Shown here one piece after another: positions 35,468 through 59,432 of a stretch of 64,000 nt of DNA. The stretch covers positions 69,789 to 133,788 of the forward strand of contig CAZYBO010000005.1 in the NCBI GenBank assembly GCA_964645205.1. The letters are read 5' to 3'. Source of the stretch: an uncultured Rickettsiales bacterium (GTDB lineage Bacteria > Pseudomonadota > Alphaproteobacteria > Rickettsiales > SXRF01). Position 1 is the stretch's first letter. Every line of letters begins with the position of its first letter. The notes beneath the pieces were generated by a model. The model did no database searches and was not told the origin of the DNA. It saw only the letters and a list, made by a program, of their open reading frames with translations. The position numbers and the translations under genes were made by a program.

Positions 35468-36545
35468 GGGAATCACCTCACAGGCTCGCGCGCTCGGCTT
35501 CGACACCGTAGGCTTCGCACGCCCCCAGCTCGCCGCGCGCTATGCCGCCGGGCTTGGGGAGTTTCTCGCACTCGGGCATCACGGCGACATGCAGTGGATG
35601 GAAGAAAAAGCCGACCGCCGCAGCGATCCGCTGACGCTATGGCCGGAGGCGAAAAGCGTCATCGTGCTCGGTCACAATTACGCACCCGAAACGAATCCGA
35701 TGGAAAAACTCGCGCAGAAAAACATCGGCAATATTTCCTGCTACGCGCTGAACGAAGATTATCATGAGGTGATCAAGAAAAAACTGAAAGCGCTCGCGCG
35801 TTGGTTGGTGGCAACGTACGGCGGCGACGTCAAAGTATTCGTAGACACCGCGCCCGTAATGGAAAAGCCGTTGGCGGAAGCTGCGGGATTGGGTTGGGTG
35901 GGAAAGCACACTTGCTTAGTCAGCCGCGAATTCGGTTCGTGGCTGTTTATCGGCAGCGTGTTTACGACGCTGGATTACAATGTCATCCTGAGCGAAGCGA
36001 AGGATCTTGCCGGAGCAAAGAAAGATTCTTCACCTGCGGTTCAGAATGACATTGCGCACTGCGGCACCTGTACCAAATGTATCGACATTTGCCCCACACA
36101 GGCCTTCACCGCCGAACGCAAGCTGGATGCGCGGCGCTGCATTTCCTATCTTACCATCGAACATAAAGGGCAGATTCCGCTGGAATTCCGCAAAGCCATC
36201 GGCAACCGCATCTACGGGTGCGACGATTGCCTCGCCGTCTGCCCGTGGAATAAATTCGCGCAAGTTGCAAACGAGTCCGCTTATCATCCACGCAAAGAAC
36301 TGGAGGCGCCGTTGCTACGCGAACTCGTGCTGCTCGACGATACCGCCTTCCGCGACTATTTTCGTAAATCCCCAGTTAAACGCATCGGACGCGACCGCTT
36401 CGTACGCAATGTGCTTATCGCCATCGGCAACAGCGGTGATCGTTCGCTAGCCGGAATTATTTCCCCGCTGCAAAATGACGCGTCATCGCTCGTCGCGGAC
36501 ATGGCGACATGGGCAGTTGAAGAATTACAACGAACCGTGCTATAA
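35448..36545 (+). CDS. queG: Epoxyqueuosine reductase
   Basis: YHEVIKKKL, VDTAPVMEK, CGTCTKCIDICPT, RCISYLTIE, YGCDDCLAVCPWN. Confidence 0.96.
   Translation: MKTRISEGITSQARALGFDTVGFARPQLAARYAAGLGEFLALGHHGDMQWMEEKADRRSDPLTLWPEAKSVIVLGHNYAPETNPMEKLAQKNIGNISCYALNEDYHEVIKKKLKALARWLVATYGGDVKVFVDTAPVMEKPLAEAAGLGWVGKHTCLVSREFGSWLFIGSVFTTLDYNVILSEAKDLAGAKKDSSPAVQNDIAHCGTCTKCIDICPTQAFTAERKLDARRCISYLTIEHKGQIPLEFRKAIGNRIYGCDDCLAVCPWNKFAQVANESAYHPRKELEAPLLRELVLLDDTAFRDYFRKSPVKRIGRDRFVRNVLIAIGNSGDRSLAGIISPLQNDASSLVADMATWAVEELQRTVL
35981..36051. repeat. Gene-less YGTC hairpin dimer (type B), in frame inside queG
   Basis: TGTCATCCTGAGCGAAGCGAAGGATCT...AGATTCTTCACCTGCGGTTCAGAATGACA. The left arm is 1 nt from the arms flanking the GIY-YIG gene at 58313. 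Confidence 0.92.
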
Positions 36546-42279: not shown

Positions 42280-42355
42280 TGTCATCCTGAACGAAGTGAA
42301 GGATCTTTCTTCCTGCGTACGGCGTTTAGACCCTTCGCGTGCGCTCAGGATGACA
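42280..42355. repeat. Gene-less YGTC hairpin dimer (type B), intergenic upstream of pdhC
   Basis: TGTCATCCTGAACGAAGTGAAGGATCT...AGACCCTTCGCGTGCGCTCAGGATGACA. Confidence 0.9.
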
Positions 42356-44656: not shown

Positions 44657-45027
44657 TGTCATTCCTGCGAAAGCAGGAATCTTAATCTTGCCCTAAACCC
44701 AATCCTGTATTTCGTCGTACAAATCTTTCCATTCCGGATTCAGCTTTTCAATCAACTCTACTTTCCACTCCCGCTTCCAGCGCTTCAGGCATTTTTCGCG
44801 CTGAATAGCGCGGTCTACATAGTCGAAAACTTCAACATACACTAATTTTTTAATATGGTATTTCTTGCTATGCCCCTCTATCAATCCGTCCTTATGTTCC
44901 CTGACTCTTCTTACCAGATCCTTCGTCACTCCAATGTACAGTACGCCATATCTTTTGCTTGCCAGCACATACACATAGTATCTATGCGTTTTGCTCATTC
45001 AAGATCCCTGCTTTCGCAGGGATGACA
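44657..45027. mobile_element. GIY-YIG cassette A bracketed by inverted TGTC hairpins
   Basis: Arms at 44657-44682 (TGTCATTCCTGCGAAAGCAGGAATCT) and 45002-45027 (AGATCCCTGCTTTCGCAGGGATGACA). Mobility is inferred. Confidence 0.8.
44693..44998 (-). CDS. Short GIY-YIG nuclease (COG2827/YhbQ-like)
   Basis: YYVY..LYIGVT.DLVRR..EHK..AIQREK..KRW..LNPEW.DLY. Confidence 0.92.
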   Translation of the reverse strand: MSKTHRYYVYVLASKRYGVLYIGVTKDLVRRVREHKDGLIEGHSKKYHIKKLVYVEVFDYVDRAIQREKCLKRWKREWKVELIEKLNPEWKDLYDEIQDWV

Positions 45028-49083: not shown

Positions 49084-49155
49084 TGTCATTCCTGCGAAAG
49101 CAGGAATCTTGGGTTTAGCCGAAAAGCATAGATTCCTGCTTTCGCAGGAATGACA
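49084..49155. repeat. Gene-less YGTC hairpin dimer (type A)
   Basis: TGTCATTCCTGCGAAAGCAGGAATCT-N20-AGATTCCTGCTTTCGCAGGAATGACA is a perfect 26-bp inverted repeat, identical to the left arm of cassette A. Confidence 0.95.
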
Positions 49156-49165
49156 ACATATGAAG

Positions 49166-49996
49166 TTACAATGCCTTCGTAATCTTATCGTGCTCTTTCA
49201 GCAGCACGAGCAGGCGCTCCATATCGTCGAGCCGCATCATGCAGGGCCCGTCGGACGGTGCGTTGTCGGGGTCTTGGTGCGTTTCCATGAATAATCCCGC
49301 CACGCCGACTGCCACCGCAGCTTTGGCGAGGATGGGCACATATTGCCGCTGGCCGCCAGATGCACCGCCCTGCCCGCCGGGTTGCTGCACGCTGTGCGTG
49401 GCGTCGAACACCACCGGGCAGCCGGTTTGCGCCATGATCGGCAATGCACGCATATCGGTAACCAGCGTGTTGTAACCGAAGCTGGCGCCGCGCTCGGTGA
49501 GGATGACATTCGGGTTGCCCGCGTAATCCATTTTATCCACCGCGTTTTTCATATCCCACGGCGCAAGGAACTGGCCTTTTTTGATGTTGATAACCTTGTC
49601 GGTGCGCGCAGCCGCCAGCAGCATATCCGTCTGGCGCGAAAGAAAGGCGGGAATCTGCAAAATGTCCACATGCGGCGCAACCACTTCGCACTGCTCCTCG
49701 GTGTGCACATCGGTAAGCACCGGACAGCCCAGCTCCTCGCGAATTTCGTCGAAAATCGGCAGCGCCTTCACCAGCCCCACGCCGCGCTTACCCGCGATGC
49801 TCGTGCGGTTCGCCTTATCGTACGACGATTTGTAGATGAACGGGATGTCGAGCGTGTTGGTGAGCTTGATCAGCGCCTCAGCCATGAACAGCGTGTGGTC
49901 GCGGTTTTCCACCTGACATGGCCCCGCGATAAGCACAAACGGCATGTCGTTGCCGATGGTGATGTTGCCGATGGTGATGTGGCGAATAGCGGTCAT
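49166..49996 (-). CDS. kdsA: KDO-8-phosphate synthase
   Basis: [46 protein letters not shown]. Confidence 0.97.
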
Positions 49997-50002
49997 ATCA
50001 GT

Positions 50003-50377
50003 CGTCATCCTGCGGGTTGCGAAGCAACAGCGCAGGATCTCTCCCCGGTGAGCCCGGAATAGAGATCAGCCCACGCAGGATTTTTTGTTTCGATAATAGA
50101 TAGTTTCTTTTCACGATGAATATTCTTCAACTTTTTCTCCGCTTCAATAGCAGCCACAATCGTTTCGTGACATTCGAACCAAACCAGCCGCGTGAGATTA
50201 TACCGTTTCGTGAAACCGGCAACCATCTTTTCTTTATGTTGCCATACACGTTTTACCAGATCGGATGTCACGCCAATGTAAATCGTCCCACGATAGCCAT
50301 TAGACATCATGTAAACATACCCGCCAACCATCGCTTCGGATCCTGTGCTCTTGCCTGCGGCAAGCCACAGGATGACG
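50003..50377. mobile_element. GIY-YIG cassette C bracketed by inverted CGTC hairpins
   Basis: Arms at 50003-50040 (CGTCATCCTGCGGGTTGCGAAGCAACAGCGCAGGATCT) and 50338-50377 (reverse complement CGTCATCCTGTGGCTTGCCGCAGGCAAGAGCACAGGATCC). Confidence 0.8.
50005..50331 (-). CDS. Short GIY-YIG nuclease (COG2827/YhbQ-like)
   Basis: GYVY..IYIGVT.DLVKRV.QHK..AIEAEK..KNPAW.DLY. The stop codon lies inside the hairpin arm. Confidence 0.92.
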
Positions 50378-50381
50378 ATTT

Positions 50382-52425
<2,044 letters not shown>

Positions 52426-57259: not shown

Positions 57260-58288
57260 ATGACCACCCCCATGCACGATATTCTCACCCTGCTCGCCGA
57301 ACGCAAGAACCTGACGCAGGACGCGGCCGTGCGCGCGTTCCAGATCATCATGAACGGCGGCGCGACGCCAGCGCAGATGGCGGCATTTATGATGGGCTTG
57401 CGCATGAAGGGCGAAACGGCGGAGGAAATTACCGGCGGGGCGATCGCCCTGCGTGCGAAAGCGCCGCATGTGAAGGTGCCTGCAGGTGCGATCGACACAT
57501 GCGGCACGGGCGGCGACGCCAAGGGCACGTACAATATTTCCACCGCCGTGGCGTTCGTGCTGGCGGCCTGCGGCGTACCGGTGGCCAAGCACGGCAACCG
57601 CTCGGTATCCTCGCAATCCGGCTCCGCCGACGTGTTGGCGATGCTCGGCGTGAATATCAATGCGGAAATCCCGGTGCTGCTGCGCTGCCTCGAGCAGTGC
57701 AATATCTGCTTCCTGATGGCGCCGCGCTTCCACACCGCCATGCGCCATGTCGCCCCGCTACGGCAGGAGCTTGGGCTGCGCACCGTATTCAACTTGCTTG
57801 GCCCCCTCTCCAACCCTGCCACGCCCGACTTTCAGTTACTCGGTGTTTATTCGGAAAACTGGCTGGAGCCGATGGCACATGCGCTGAAGTCGCTCGGCGT
57901 CAAAGCCGCTTGGGTCGTGCATGGCAGCGACGGGCTGGACGAACTTACGCTGTCGGGCACCTCGCAAGTCGCCGAACTGAAAGACGGCAACGTGCGCCGT
58001 TTCGACATCACCCCTGAAGATGCCGGCCTCGCGCGCGCGTCCATCGACGAGCTCAGGGGACAATCCCCCGAATACAACGCCAACGCCCTGCAACACGCGC
58101 TCTCCGGCGCCGACAGCGCCTACCGCCGCGCCGTACTGCTCAACGCGAGCGCCGGTTTGATCGTCGCGGGCAAAGCCGCCGACCTCAAAGCAGGCGTAGC
58201 ACTCGCCGCCGCCGCCATCGATTCGGGTGATGCGTATAAGGTTCTCAAAAAGCTGGTCGATGTGAGCAATACTAAAGTGTCATCCTGA
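57260..58288 (+). CDS. trpD: Anthranilate phosphoribosyltransferase
   Basis: DTCGTGGD, NISTA, KHGNRSVSSQSGSAD, HGSDGLDE. The stop codon lies inside a hairpin arm. Confidence 0.97.
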   Translation: MTTPMHDILTLLAERKNLTQDAAVRAFQIIMNGGATPAQMAAFMMGLRMKGETAEEITGGAIALRAKAPHVKVPAGAIDTCGTGGDAKGTYNISTAVAFVLAACGVPVAKHGNRSVSSQSGSADVLAMLGVNINAEIPVLLRCLEQCNICFLMAPRFHTAMRHVAPLRQELGLRTVFNLLGPLSNPATPDFQLLGVYSENWLEPMAHALKSLGVKAAWVVHGSDGLDELTLSGTSQVAELKDGNVRRFDITPEDAGLARASIDELRGQSPEYNANALQHALSGADSAYRRAVLLNASAGLIVAGKAADLKAGVALAAAAIDSGDAYKVLKKLVDVSNTKVSS

Positions 58289-58631
58289 GCGTAGCGAAGG
58301 ATCTGGCCGTTTATGCTAATCTACTACGTTTATATACTCACGAGCCCCAATAACAGGGTTATGTATATTGGCGTTACGAACAACCTTGAACGCCGTGTAT
58401 GGGAGCATAAATCTAAAGCCGTATCTGGATTTACCCAAAAATATAATGTGACAAAATTGGTATATTTTGAAGAATGCTCCGATATTATGTCGGCGATTGC
58501 TCGCGAAAAACAGATTAAAGGCTGGCTACGAAAAAAGAAAGATGCGCTGGTAGAAGTCACCAACCCGGAATGGAAAGATATAAGCGTGGAATGGTACGCA
58601 AGTGAGATCCTTCGCTGCGCTCAGGATGACA
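58278..58631. mobile_element. GIY-YIG cassette B bracketed by inverted TGTC hairpins
   Basis: Arms at 58278-58304 (TGTCATCCTGAGCGTAGCGAAGGATCT) and 58605-58631 (AGATCCTTCGCTGCGCTCAGGATGACA), 26/27 inverted match. Confidence 0.82.
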
Positions 58632-58636
58632 AGTAA
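58313..58636 (+). CDS. Short GIY-YIG nuclease (COG2827/YhbQ-like)
   Basis: YYVY..MYIGVTNNLERR.WEHK..AIAREK.IKGW..TNPEWKD. The C-terminal EILRCAQDDK is encoded by the right arm. Confidence 0.92.
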   Translation: MLIYYVYILTSPNNRVMYIGVTNNLERRVWEHKSKAVSGFTQKYNVTKLVYFEECSDIMSAIAREKQIKGWLRKKKDALVEVTNPEWKDISVEWYASEILRCAQDDK

Positions 58637-58637
58637 C

Positions 58638-59432
58638 ATGACAGACACCCTCGCCGCCATCTGTGCCGCCAAGCGTGAGCACATCGCCAAGCGCAAGGCC
58701 GCCGCACCGGAAGGCCGCATACTGGAGGAGGCGCAGCGCGCCTTGCCCGCACGCGGATTCAGACGGGCGTTGCAGGAAAAGCAAAACAACAAAAAATTCG
58801 GTCTCATCGCGGAAATCAAAAAGGCCTCACCGAGCAAGGGCATCATCCGCGCGGATTTCGACCCCGCGGCACTGGCGAAGGCATATGAAGAAGGCGGCGC
58901 GGCGTGCCTTTCCGTGCTCACCGACGAGCCGTATTTTCAGGGTAGCGATGCGTATCTCGCGCAGGCGCGAAACGCCGTGGGCCTGCCGGTGCTGCGCAAG
59001 GATTTTATGCTCGATCCGTACCAGATCATTGAATCGCGCGCGCTTGGAGCGGATTGTATCCTGCTCATCATGGCCGCCCTGTCCGACGCGCAGGCGAAAG
59101 AACTGGACGAAGCCGCCACAAAACTTGGTATGGACACGCTGGTCGAAGTACACGACGAATATGAGATGGAACGCGCGGTTATGCACCTGCGCCCTGCCCT
59201 GCTTGGCATCAATAACCGCAACCTGAAAACGCTGAAGGTAGACATCGAAACCTCGCGGCGGTTGGCAGCACGGCTCCCAAAGGACGTAACCGGCGTGTGC
59301 GAAAGCGGTATTGAAACGCACCGCGATCTGCTGTATCTCCGGGAAAGCGGTTTTACCTGTTTCCTCGTCGGCGAATCGCTGATGCGGCAGGCGGATGTGA
59401 CGAAAGCGACTCGAACCCTGTTGGGAGGATAG
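58638..59432 (+). CDS. trpC: Indole-3-glycerol-phosphate synthase
   Basis: IAEIKKASPSKG, SVLTD, LRKDF, GINNRNL, ESGI. Confidence 0.97.
   Translation: MTDTLAAICAAKREHIAKRKAAAPEGRILEEAQRALPARGFRRALQEKQNNKKFGLIAEIKKASPSKGIIRADFDPAALAKAYEEGGAACLSVLTDEPYFQGSDAYLAQARNAVGLPVLRKDFMLDPYQIIESRALGADCILLIMAALSDAQAKELDEAATKLGMDTLVEVHDEYEMERAVMHLRPALLGINNRNLKTLKVDIETSRRLAARLPKDVTGVCESGIETHRDLLYLRESGFTCFLVGESLMRQADVTKATRTLLGG

Follow-up and report, generated by a model that had tools for sequence, protein, structure and literature searches.

The 64,000-nucleotide window, that is, the whole stretch of DNA analysed here from an uncultured Rickettsiales bacterium, carries a compact unit between the host genes pyrG and kdsA. 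In this unit, which we call cassette C, the gene for a 108-residue GIY-YIG nuclease (P0001) is enclosed by two inverted arms, and the whole sits within an operon, pyrG-ssn-kdsA, in which all genes lie on the minus strand. The features are listed below, with the arms named relative to the nuclease gene.

49166..49996, minus strand: kdsA, the downstream host gene (Pfam DAHP_synth_1)
50003..50040, GTCAT strand plus, antisense to the operon: 3′ arm, CGTCATCCTGCGGGTTGCGAAGCAACAGCGCAGGATCT
50007-50014 paired with 50031-50038: lower stem of the 3′ arm
50016-50020 paired with 50024-50028: upper stem of the 3′ arm
50021-50023: GAA loop of the 3′ arm, with G50015 opposite A50029 and a bulged G at 50030
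50005..50331, minus strand: gene of the ssn type, encoding P0001, a GIY-YIG nuclease of 108 aa with a single domain
50338..50377, GTCAT strand minus: 5′ arm, CGTCATCCTGTGGCTTGCCGCAGGCAAGAGCACAGGATCC
50373-50366 paired with 50347-50340, minus strand: lower stem of the 5′ arm
50364-50359 paired with 50355-50350, minus strand: upper stem of the 5′ arm
50358-50356, minus strand: GCA loop of the 5′ arm, with G50365 opposite A50349 and a bulged G at 50348
50382..52067, minus strand: pyrG (CTP synthase), the upstream host gene (Pfam CTP_synth_N and GATase)

The cassette is fitted closely to its neighbours. Only 4 nt separate the TAA stop codon of pyrG (50382-50384) from the 5′ arm, and at the other end the six nucleotides ATCAGT (49997-50002) separate the 3′ arm from the likely kdsA start, ATGACC (49996-49991). 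Arm and gene overlap at this end, where the 3′ arm encodes residues 97-108 of P0001 together with the TGA stop (50005-50007). The 3′ strand of the 5′ arm holds an AGGA 9 nt before the nuclease ATG, and the arm itself ends 6 nt before that codon. No family was found in an Rfam scan of 49800-50600, and a scan for terminators and promoters returned nothing at the arms, including no T-run terminator. The GIY-YIG nuclease is the sole open reading frame of the cassette, which holds no transposase.

Read on its GTCAT strand, the left (3′) arm (plus strand, 50003-50040) is CGTC ATCCTGCG G GTTGC GAA GCAAC AG CGCAGGAT CT and the right (5′) arm (minus strand, 50377-50338) is CGTC ATCCTGTG G CTTGCC GCA GGCAAG AG CACAGGAT CC, exactly as quoted in the first-pass annotation of this DNA. 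Both arms fold as ssDNA into the bulged two-tier hairpin which that annotation had described, at -12.9 kcal/mol for the 3′ arm (z -5.1) and -14.9 kcal/mol for the 5′ arm (z -5.4), with 0 of 200 shuffled sequences as stable in either case. Its count of two changed base pairs and one added pair between the arms is confirmed from the sequence: one pair of the lower stem changes from C:G to T:A, one pair of the upper stem changes from G:C to C:G, and the upper stem of the right arm gains a C:G pair. The middle base of the loop differs as well, and every difference preserves the pairing. The outer 10 nt and an inner GGATC are common to both arms of the cassette. The parts of each arm are the GTC tag; a lower stem of 8 bp whose sequence is conserved (ATCCTGYG/CRCAGGAT); G apposed to A, with a bulged G on the 3′ side; an upper stem of 5-6 bp that is free in sequence and mostly closed by C-GNA-G; and a 3′ C. 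The G/AG internal loop claimed earlier is kept in both arms, although it is better described as a G·A pair followed by a 3′ bulged G.

The sole Pfam match of P0001 is PF01541 (GIY-YIG; E 1.4e-12, residues 4-76), and the protein carries the catalytic-type residues Y7, Y18, R28, H32, E65 and N84. The AF2 model (pLDDT 86.5) shows one GIY-YIG domain followed by a disordered tail, residues 97-108, with values below 50; neither Pfam nor the model revealed a DNA-binding extension or a second domain. Among solved folds, the UPF0213 proteins 1zg2 and 1ywl come nearest, followed by Slx1 (bound to branched DNA) and the N-terminal domain of UvrC. No Ssn entry appeared in the PDB fold search with the model, a PDB sequence search returned only the UPF0213 entry 1zg2 (E 0.009), and NCBIfam gave no family match. 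A GIY-YIG homing endonuclease of the I-TevI/Seg type, in which the catalytic domain is linked to a DNA-binding domain and the target is duplex, was considered and rejected, given that P0001 has no separate DNA-binding domain and no NCBIfam match.

The Ssn family consists of single-domain GIY-YIG nucleases of the cd10448 type, among them the 94-aa SsnA of N. meningitidis (Chenal et al., Nat Commun 2025, PMC11893778). The target of SsnA is the hairpin repeat NTS (CGTCATTCCCGCGMAVGCGGGAATCYRG), more generally termed SRM, which is bound as ssDNA only and on one strand only (PMC11893778). The tested members of the family cut a few nucleotides upstream of the motif and do not accept dsDNA or RNA as substrates; Ssn enzymes were likewise inactive on plasmid, genomic or duplex NTS DNA (PMC11893778). 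Recognition by SsnA depends critically on the bases directly upstream of the palindrome and on the C directly after it, while the identity of the loop does not matter, the loop may even be absent, and a longer stem is tolerated (PMC11893778). Changing the palindrome sequence while keeping the hairpin abolished activity, so that Ssn recognition is not of structure only (PMC11893778). SRMs were found on both sides of 42% of Ssn homologs, in a layout that the authors liken to an insertion sequence, and they raise mobility of an NTS-ssn-NTS unit as a hypothesis only (PMC11893778). SsnA is also mentioned in a 2026 preprint, in benchmark use only.

Several lines of evidence place P0001 in this family. 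A profile (A2) built from the three small GIY-YIG proteins of the window and their relatives matched 20 of 61 genomes of the genus Neisseria at about 1e-38. Three of the matches that were fetched are 94 aa long, carry Tyr6, Tyr17 and Glu64, and are each directly followed by a canonical NTS; judging by this length, these residues and the adjacent NTS, we infer that the 94-aa protein is SsnA. P0001 is 52-53% identical to these proteins over 86 aa (E 5e-30 to 5e-32), far beyond the homology criterion of the Ssn paper, a tblastn E below 1e-10 (PMC11893778). Residues Y7, Y18 and E65 of P0001 are invariant in alignment A2 and have the same 11- and 47-residue spacings as Y6, Y17 and E64, which are the positions that the SsnA study mutated (PMC11893778). 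In a tree, the Ssn-like proteins form one clade (98/97), and a long branch divides it both from the remaining small GIY-YIG proteins encoded in this genome and from the YhbQ-like Neisseria protein. No ssn gene was found in N. lactamica NS19 or N. mucosa, which were reached via an NTS pattern scan; each had only a YhbQ-like 91-aa GIY-YIG protein and UvrC.

The repeats point the same way. On both sides of the P0001 gene, SRM flanks are present as CGTC, an 8-bp palindrome arm, its partner and then a C. The published SRM motif, HGTCWYN(0-2)YYVSBRHN(0-5)WNVSBRGN(0-2)RNCYNB, matches neither arm of cassette C, and it also fails on the arms of the other two cassettes of the window, A (44693-44998) and B (58278-58631); it does match the canonical NTS and 51 sites of other types in this genome. 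This motif tolerates loops no longer than 5 nt and serves for searching; it does not define the family. As it fails on the arms, membership at the level of the motif rests on architecture: GTC, palindrome and C. Cassette C is therefore an Ssn/SRM unit of a known family, and the wider framing of the locus in the first-pass annotation as a candidate new system has to be given up, since P0001 is an Ssn nuclease. The novelty lies in the architecture of the arm, where a second stem takes the place of the loop of the one-stem hairpin. Further likenesses to the Ssn/NTS-SRM system lie in the size of the single-domain protein (about 94-108 aa) with its common Y-Y-E spacing, in a gene bracketed by inverted hairpin repeats that start with (C/T)GTCAT and end with GGA(A)TC, in the dispersal of ORF-less inverted repeat pairs in related genomes, and in the possession of its own repeat type by each nuclease clade. 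The differences are that the 3-5 nt loop of the NTS gives way here to a G·A apposition with a bulged G, plus another stem, of 5-6 bp, that carries a loop; that the arm measures 36-38 nt from GTCAT to GGATC and escapes the published motif; and that the genome under study has this repeat nowhere but at the ends of the cassette. The published SRM census is consequently incomplete, as the motif misses whole classes of arm, those of all three window cassettes included; in alphaproteobacterial MAGs that are related, each genome holds dozens of copies of such classes.

Two arms by themselves carry little weight, and the comparison was widened to ask whether the pairing is conserved. Related cassettes found through their nucleases (L001, L002/L003, L133 and L294) have two-tier arms with the same lower stem and divergent upper stems: CTTGCC, ACTGC, AACGCC, GCTGC, GCGGC and ATTGCC among these protein-anchored cassettes. 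The closest comparison is with L001, whose nuclease is 66% identical to P0001 and whose two-tier arms occupy the same pyrG|kdsA junction. At the DNA level, the body of the nuclease gene is 66.7% identical between the two and the flanking genes 66-73%. The 5′ arm is identical at 39 of 40 positions and is thus more conserved than the 3′ arm, in which 8 of 39 positions differ; one of these is the N of the loop, and four stem differences make up two compensatory pairs.

Arms were also collected independently of the protein. The first scan, for ATCCTGYGG-N(9-24)-AGCRCAGGAT over 185,579 genomes, gave 126 distinct matches, about half of which are expected by chance. The flanking GTC…C signature lies outside this pattern and was used as an independent marker to separate chance matches. 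A perfect upper stem of at least 4 bp was present in 27 of 35 matches with GTC…C vs 2 of 48 without it (Fisher p 1.4e-12). Among 34 arms of the same length, all taken without selection for pairing, 94.8% of cells were paired and 65 cells showed double changes, vs 18.7±5.4 in shuffles (0/500) and 4-11 in slid controls. A looser pattern, GTCATCCTG-N(15-36)-CAGGATC, fixes only the six outer pairs; it found 3-59 copies per genome in 14 genomes chosen as holders of the element, and a reversed control pattern found none. In the 86 same-length arms that it yielded, 93.4% of cells were paired, all eight of the eight unfixed pairs changed on both sides, and the number of double-change cells rose to 186, vs 48.8±7.7 in shuffles (0/500) and 11-26 in slid controls. 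Covariation of homologous arms, which the first-pass annotation had named as a check on the fold, thus bears it out.

These alignments also separate the fixed from the free parts of the arm. The base directly 5′ of the 3′ strand of the lower stem is G in 142 of 143 arms, a near-invariant bulge. The G·A position defines three subclasses: 66 arms have G·A itself, 41 have A-T and 24 have G-C. Across about 180 arms, the upper tier is unconstrained in sequence and yet paired, and the pair closing the loop is C:G in 80 of the 86 arms. GNA triloops closed by C-G, as in d(GCGAAGC), are exceptionally stable in ssDNA, and the usual C-GNA-G closure gives the upper tier a likeness to such mini-hairpins. 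The GNA triloop reported earlier is present in both arms of cassette C; it proves to be a preference rather than a rule, with GNA making up 47 of 86 triloops, AAA 14 and ATA 9, and with AAC and 4-nt loops also common, which sets the class apart from the d(GCGAAGC) type. What varies freely here, the upper tier with its loop, matches what SsnA was shown to do without, and the invariant GTC, lower stem and 3′ C match what it was shown to read (PMC11893778).

Covariation by itself cannot tell ssDNA from RNA hairpins, and the nature of the folded strand has to be sought in features that differ between strands. The loops are GNA on the GTCAT strand 47 times vs 3 times for the complementary TNC (p 4e-11), mismatches on this strand are G·A or G·T 31 times vs A·C or T·C 4 times (p 3e-6), and the bulged G is on the GTCAT strand in 85 of 86 arms. 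All three features are one-sided, an asymmetry that neither a duplex site nor a symmetric cruciform would bring about. The 3′ arms of the window, L001, L002 and L133 keep the features of the GTCAT strand even though this strand is antisense to the operon; together with the occurrence of copies in both orientations, this makes a role in RNA only unlikely. The call for ssDNA over RNA is based on this orientation of the arms and on the published data for Ssn relatives. Taken together, these sequence patterns and the analogy with SsnA support a fold that is conserved on one specific strand, as an ssDNA hairpin. The proposal of the first-pass annotation that a folded single strand is the recognised substrate gains support in the same way, from the covariation of the upper tier, from the features confined to the GTCAT strand and from the published ssDNA biochemistry of Ssn enzymes.

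Three other explanations of the arms were weighed against this reading. The arms may act mainly as RNA stem-loops in the pyrG-ssn-kdsA transcript, with their pairing kept for RNA reasons such as occluding the Shine-Dalgarno sequence of ssn (AGGA), stabilising the mRNA or uncoupling the translation of the flanking genes. Placement of the cassette in a same-strand operon, the position of the AGGA and of the end of the 5′ arm before the ATG, the greater conservation of that arm with L001, and the inability of covariation to separate the two kinds of hairpin would all suit such a role. It would not account for the antisense 3′ arms, in which the GAA loop, G·A and bulged G features are nonetheless kept, or for dispersed copies that lie in both orientations and mostly in inverted pairs; there is neither a T-run terminator nor an Rfam family at the locus, and the tested Ssn members do not bind RNA (PMC11893778). 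We consider a mainly RNA-based function very unlikely, and an RNA side-effect of the 5′ arm alongside a role in DNA possible.

Both of the remaining explanations place the arms in double-stranded DNA and are contradicted by the same strand bias. If the arms were extruded as cruciforms from supercoiled duplex and the nuclease cut them as a branched substrate, much as Slx1 does, folding would involve both strands, and the partner strand would carry C·T mismatches, TNC loops and a bulged C; instead, the GNA over TNC bias, the G·A and G·T over A·C and T·C bias and the bulged G are properties of one strand. The Watson-Crick share of the variable-pair cells (563 of 602 in the 86 arms) means that both strands could fold, and the Slx1 structures, bound to branched DNA, are the closest solved folds after UPF0213. 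However, no Ssn activity was seen on plasmid, genomic or duplex NTS DNA (PMC11893778), and we give the cruciform a very slim chance. Slimmer still is the chance that the arms are the terminal inverted repeats of a small transposon or of a homing element, recognised as duplex, and that their hairpin potential is incidental. The layout of inverted repeat, gene and inverted repeat, the fact that the cassette is an insertion, and the outer 10 nt and inner GGATC common to both arms are what would be seen in such an element. Yet the upper tiers differ between the two arms while each remains self-complementary, those of about 180 arms are free in sequence but paired, and the strand asymmetry of loops, mismatches and bulge would be meaningless in a duplex. 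The cassette encodes no transposase, its sole protein being a 108-aa single-domain nuclease without a DNA-binding extension, and Ssn members are inactive on dsDNA (PMC11893778). We therefore regard 50003-50377 as very likely an Ssn-family cassette in which the gene for a nuclease of about 100 aa lies between two inverted copies of its own SRM target, the target being an ssDNA hairpin.

The class of arm follows the nuclease. The canonical SRM (GTCAT, a stem of 8-9 bp, a loop of 4-5 nt and (A)TCC) is the majority form in the 80 protein-anchored Ssn loci sampled. The nucleases with the arm class of cassette C (window C, L001, L002, L133 and L294) form a clade (96/95; SH-aLRT 97 in a second tree). 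Among 30-31 relatives, unselected, arms were abundant only in the genomes with P0001-like nucleases, namely G003 (42 copies), G012 (20), G013 (29) and G028 (15), and 22 relatives had none. The arm class is co-inherited with one nuclease clade. In the genome under study, the two-tier arm is found only at the two ends of cassette C; arms of type A, type B and two further SRM types are spread over the genome, for the most part as inverted pairs without an ORF, and about 110 of 181 matches to the GTCAT word are recognisable arms, as read from the list of matches. Dispersed two-tier copies in relatives likewise lie in both orientations, mostly as inverted pairs. Around the loci of the first arm scan, 0 of 120 had a GIY-YIG gene within 8 kb; these loci are dispersed repeats rather than cassettes.

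Two-tier arms also occur with a second, unrelated nuclease clade (L299, L338 and L349; SH-aLRT 95), where they are built on a different lower stem, ATTCCGGG. The G/AG junction is shared by L299 (in its 3′ arm) and L349, and the junction of L338 differs. The two-tier architecture requires 5 changes on the tree vs 10.6 with shuffled labels (0/500) and is thus recurrent but clade-bound. Further, isolated two-tier arms were seen at L303 and L138.

Other systems that depend on folded repeats offer partial parallels. REP/REPIN-RAYT and IS200/IS605 elements also have a small gene between inverted hairpin repeats whose 5′ tag is short and conserved, hairpin pairs that are dispersed without an ORF, stems that are conserved next to loops that are free, and, as proposed for cassette C, recognition of a folded single strand. 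They differ in that the enzyme here is a GIY-YIG nuclease and not an HUH tyrosine transposase, with no sign of strand transfer; the tag is GTC(AT) and not GTAG, and the two hairpins lie on opposite strands here and on one strand in IS200/IS605. Membership in either group was rejected, as there is no HUH Y1 transposase and the only ORF of the cassette encodes the GIY-YIG protein. The attC site of integrons is likewise a folded single-strand site with largely free sequence, conserved structure and extrahelical bases that mark the strand. In contrast to attC, the arms of cassette C have no R′/R″ core sites (GTTRRRY) and no integrase, there are two arms per cassette rather than one attC, and the lower stem is conserved in sequence. 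An integron cassette, which is defined by R″/R′ core sites (RYYYAAC … GTTRRRY) with an associated IntI integrase, was rejected on the same grounds: the arm ends are CGTCATCC and GGATC(T/C), without GTTRRRY, and the neighbours are pyrG and kdsA, without IntI.

A mechanism for cassette C can be drafted largely by analogy with SsnA of N. meningitidis. Whenever the GTCAT strand is exposed as ssDNA, be it in replication, in repair or in the uptake or transfer of DNA, the arm would snap into its hairpin. The upper tier, capped by C-GNA-G, would nucleate folding, and together with its mini-loop it would serve as a module for nucleation and stability only. The nuclease, if it binds as SsnA does, would read the GTC tag, the sequence of the lower stem, the bulged G and the 3′ C, and would nick the single strand, probably a few nucleotides 5′ of GTCAT and thus outside the cassette on each strand. 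By the same analogy, P0001 would be expected to act exclusively on ssDNA. The nuclease may serve the mobility of the cassette, or it may, as in Neisseria, limit the recombination of ssDNA that enters the cell, or it may do both. This genome offers just two sites, and restriction on a genome-wide scale thus seems less likely here than a role that is selfish or self-regulatory. Since the arms are on opposite strands, a single ssDNA molecule would be cut at one end only, and the mechanism of mobility is to that extent not yet complete.

To our knowledge, Ssn enzymes are the only site-specific ssDNA-cutting nucleases known so far, and they are under development as ssDNA tools. The two-tier arms offer a natural split of the target into a part that is read (GTC, lower stem, bulged G and 3′ C) and a part that is structural. 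This split agrees with the published dispensability of the loop, and it predicts that the upper tier could be reprogrammed at will. Recognition by the nuclease may be limited to the GTC tag, the bulged G and the lower stem, with the upper tier under no such constraint.

The history of the pyrG|kdsA junction bears on the question of whether NTS-ssn-NTS units move. In at least eight relatives (L145-L149, L151, L154 and L158) the junction is empty, with sequence GCGGCATGAC, and the two genes abut or overlap: the pyrG stop overlaps the kdsA start (GCATGAC; …GCGGCATGACC…), the TGA stop lying inside ATGA. Other relatives have unrelated inserts at this position. Cassette C is an insertion at the pyrG|kdsA junction. 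The KdsA tree places this genome and G007, whose junction has a different insert, as sisters, and it likewise groups the L001 genome with its sister G010, whose junction is empty (98/93). As the junction is filled in two non-sister lineages, the filled state needs at least two changes, meaning independent insertion, ancient exchange by recombination of the flanks, or several precise losses.

We also entertain, as a tentative and rather doubtful proposal, that the two-tier arm is a modular Ssn target and that the cassette may in addition be an autonomous mobile element homing to sites of the GTCAT/ATGAC type. The mobile element is suggested by the filling of the same junction in two non-sister lineages with empty sisters, and by the ATGAC starts that recur at cassettes C, B and L001. 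At each of these three, ATGAC opens the downstream host gene 5-6 nt past the terminal …GGATGAC(G/A) of the arm, a recurrence that possibly reflects a target preference. If true, this would be the first comparative evidence of site-specific movement of an Ssn cassette, and the unit would stand to GIY-YIG nucleases as REPIN does to RAYT.

Besides cassette C, the window holds two more Ssn-type cassettes, A and B, and the arm type differs from one cassette to the next:

Cassette A, 44693-44998, minus strand; arm GTCAT(T)CC(C)TGCGAAAGCAGG(G)A(A)TC
Cassette B, 58278-58631, plus strand; arm GTCATCCTGAGCGTAGCGAAGGATC

The cassette B arm carries a GC-GTA-GC mini-hairpin flanked by tandem G·A pairs. All three small Ssn genes of the 2.17-Mb genome fall within a span of at most 14 kb. 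Arms also occur as inverted pairs that enclose no ORF, three of which lie in the window:

35981-36050, ORF-less inverted SRM-arm pair, type B; within a coding frame, apparently queG
42280-42355, ORF-less inverted SRM-arm pair, type B
49085-49160, ORF-less inverted SRM-arm pair, type A; flanked by an unknown ORF and kdsA

Across the whole genome, roughly 110 of the 181 GTCAT-word matches were recognisable as SRM arms when the list was judged by eye, and these represent at least four types, including the canonical Neisseria type, GTCATTCCCGCGMAGGCGGGAATC. Exact copies of the canonical Neisseria NTS consensus occur in genomes from many phyla (loci L162-L241), among them Dehalococcoidia, Planctomycetota, Nitrospirota and many Proteobacteria, and inverted pairs are a frequent arrangement at these loci. 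C-class dimers without an ORF were also observed in three genomes (G093, G013 and G012; for example G093, contig C29, 2284-2351), usually combining an arm of the YG-A…T-G-CR subclass with one of the YG-G…AG-CR subclass, the two sometimes being joined via a common GGATCC.

Two-tier arms are also present in a second Ssn clade, represented by three loci from Xanthobacteraceae-type MAGs (L299, L338 and L349), with a lower stem, ATTCCGGG/CCCGGAAT, that differs from that of cassette C. The G…AG junction of cassette C recurs in L349 and in the 3' arm of L299; the fold of the L299 5' arm differs, and the L338 arm has a junction unlike G…AG. Two other loci, L303 and L138, have two-tier arms bearing a 3' TA bulge.

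The pyrG/kdsA junction occupied by cassette C is an insertion hot spot. In seven loci from the same bacterial family (L143, L144, L150, L152, L156, L160 and L161) it contains unrelated inserts: small ORFs and, in L152 and L160, what by eye resemble two-gene toxin-antitoxin-like modules. The 5'-terminal part of kdsA carries, at a distance of 25 nt from cassette C, a perfect 15-bp tandem duplication of GTTGCCGATGGTGAT (two copies, 49949-49978) that doubles the peptide ITIGN; the kdsA orthologue beside L001, the orthologous cassette at the same junction, has one copy of the unit. In cassettes C, B and L001, ATGAC opens the downstream host gene, 5-6 nt past the arm-terminal GGATGAC(G/A):

49991-50010, cassette C
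58620-58645, cassette B
about 1815-1845, L001

This proximity could reflect a target preference for the GTCAT/ATGAC word or a duplication of that word; it could also have arisen by chance.

Three further small GIY-YIG genes, located outside the window, belong to a different clade from the Ssn genes (genome G000):

Contig C2, 366543-366758, tRNA-adjacent small GIY-YIG gene
Contig C4, 300160-300363, tRNA-adjacent small GIY-YIG gene
Contig C2, 109510-109647, tRNA-adjacent small GIY-YIG gene

Each has a tRNA gene directly upstream and a similar G+C-rich leader of ~100 nt (…CCTACGCC…GGGTGGCAGGCC…GGGGGACTGGAG…) ahead of it, and one of the three genes is truncated. The set resembles a distinct element associated with tRNA genes.
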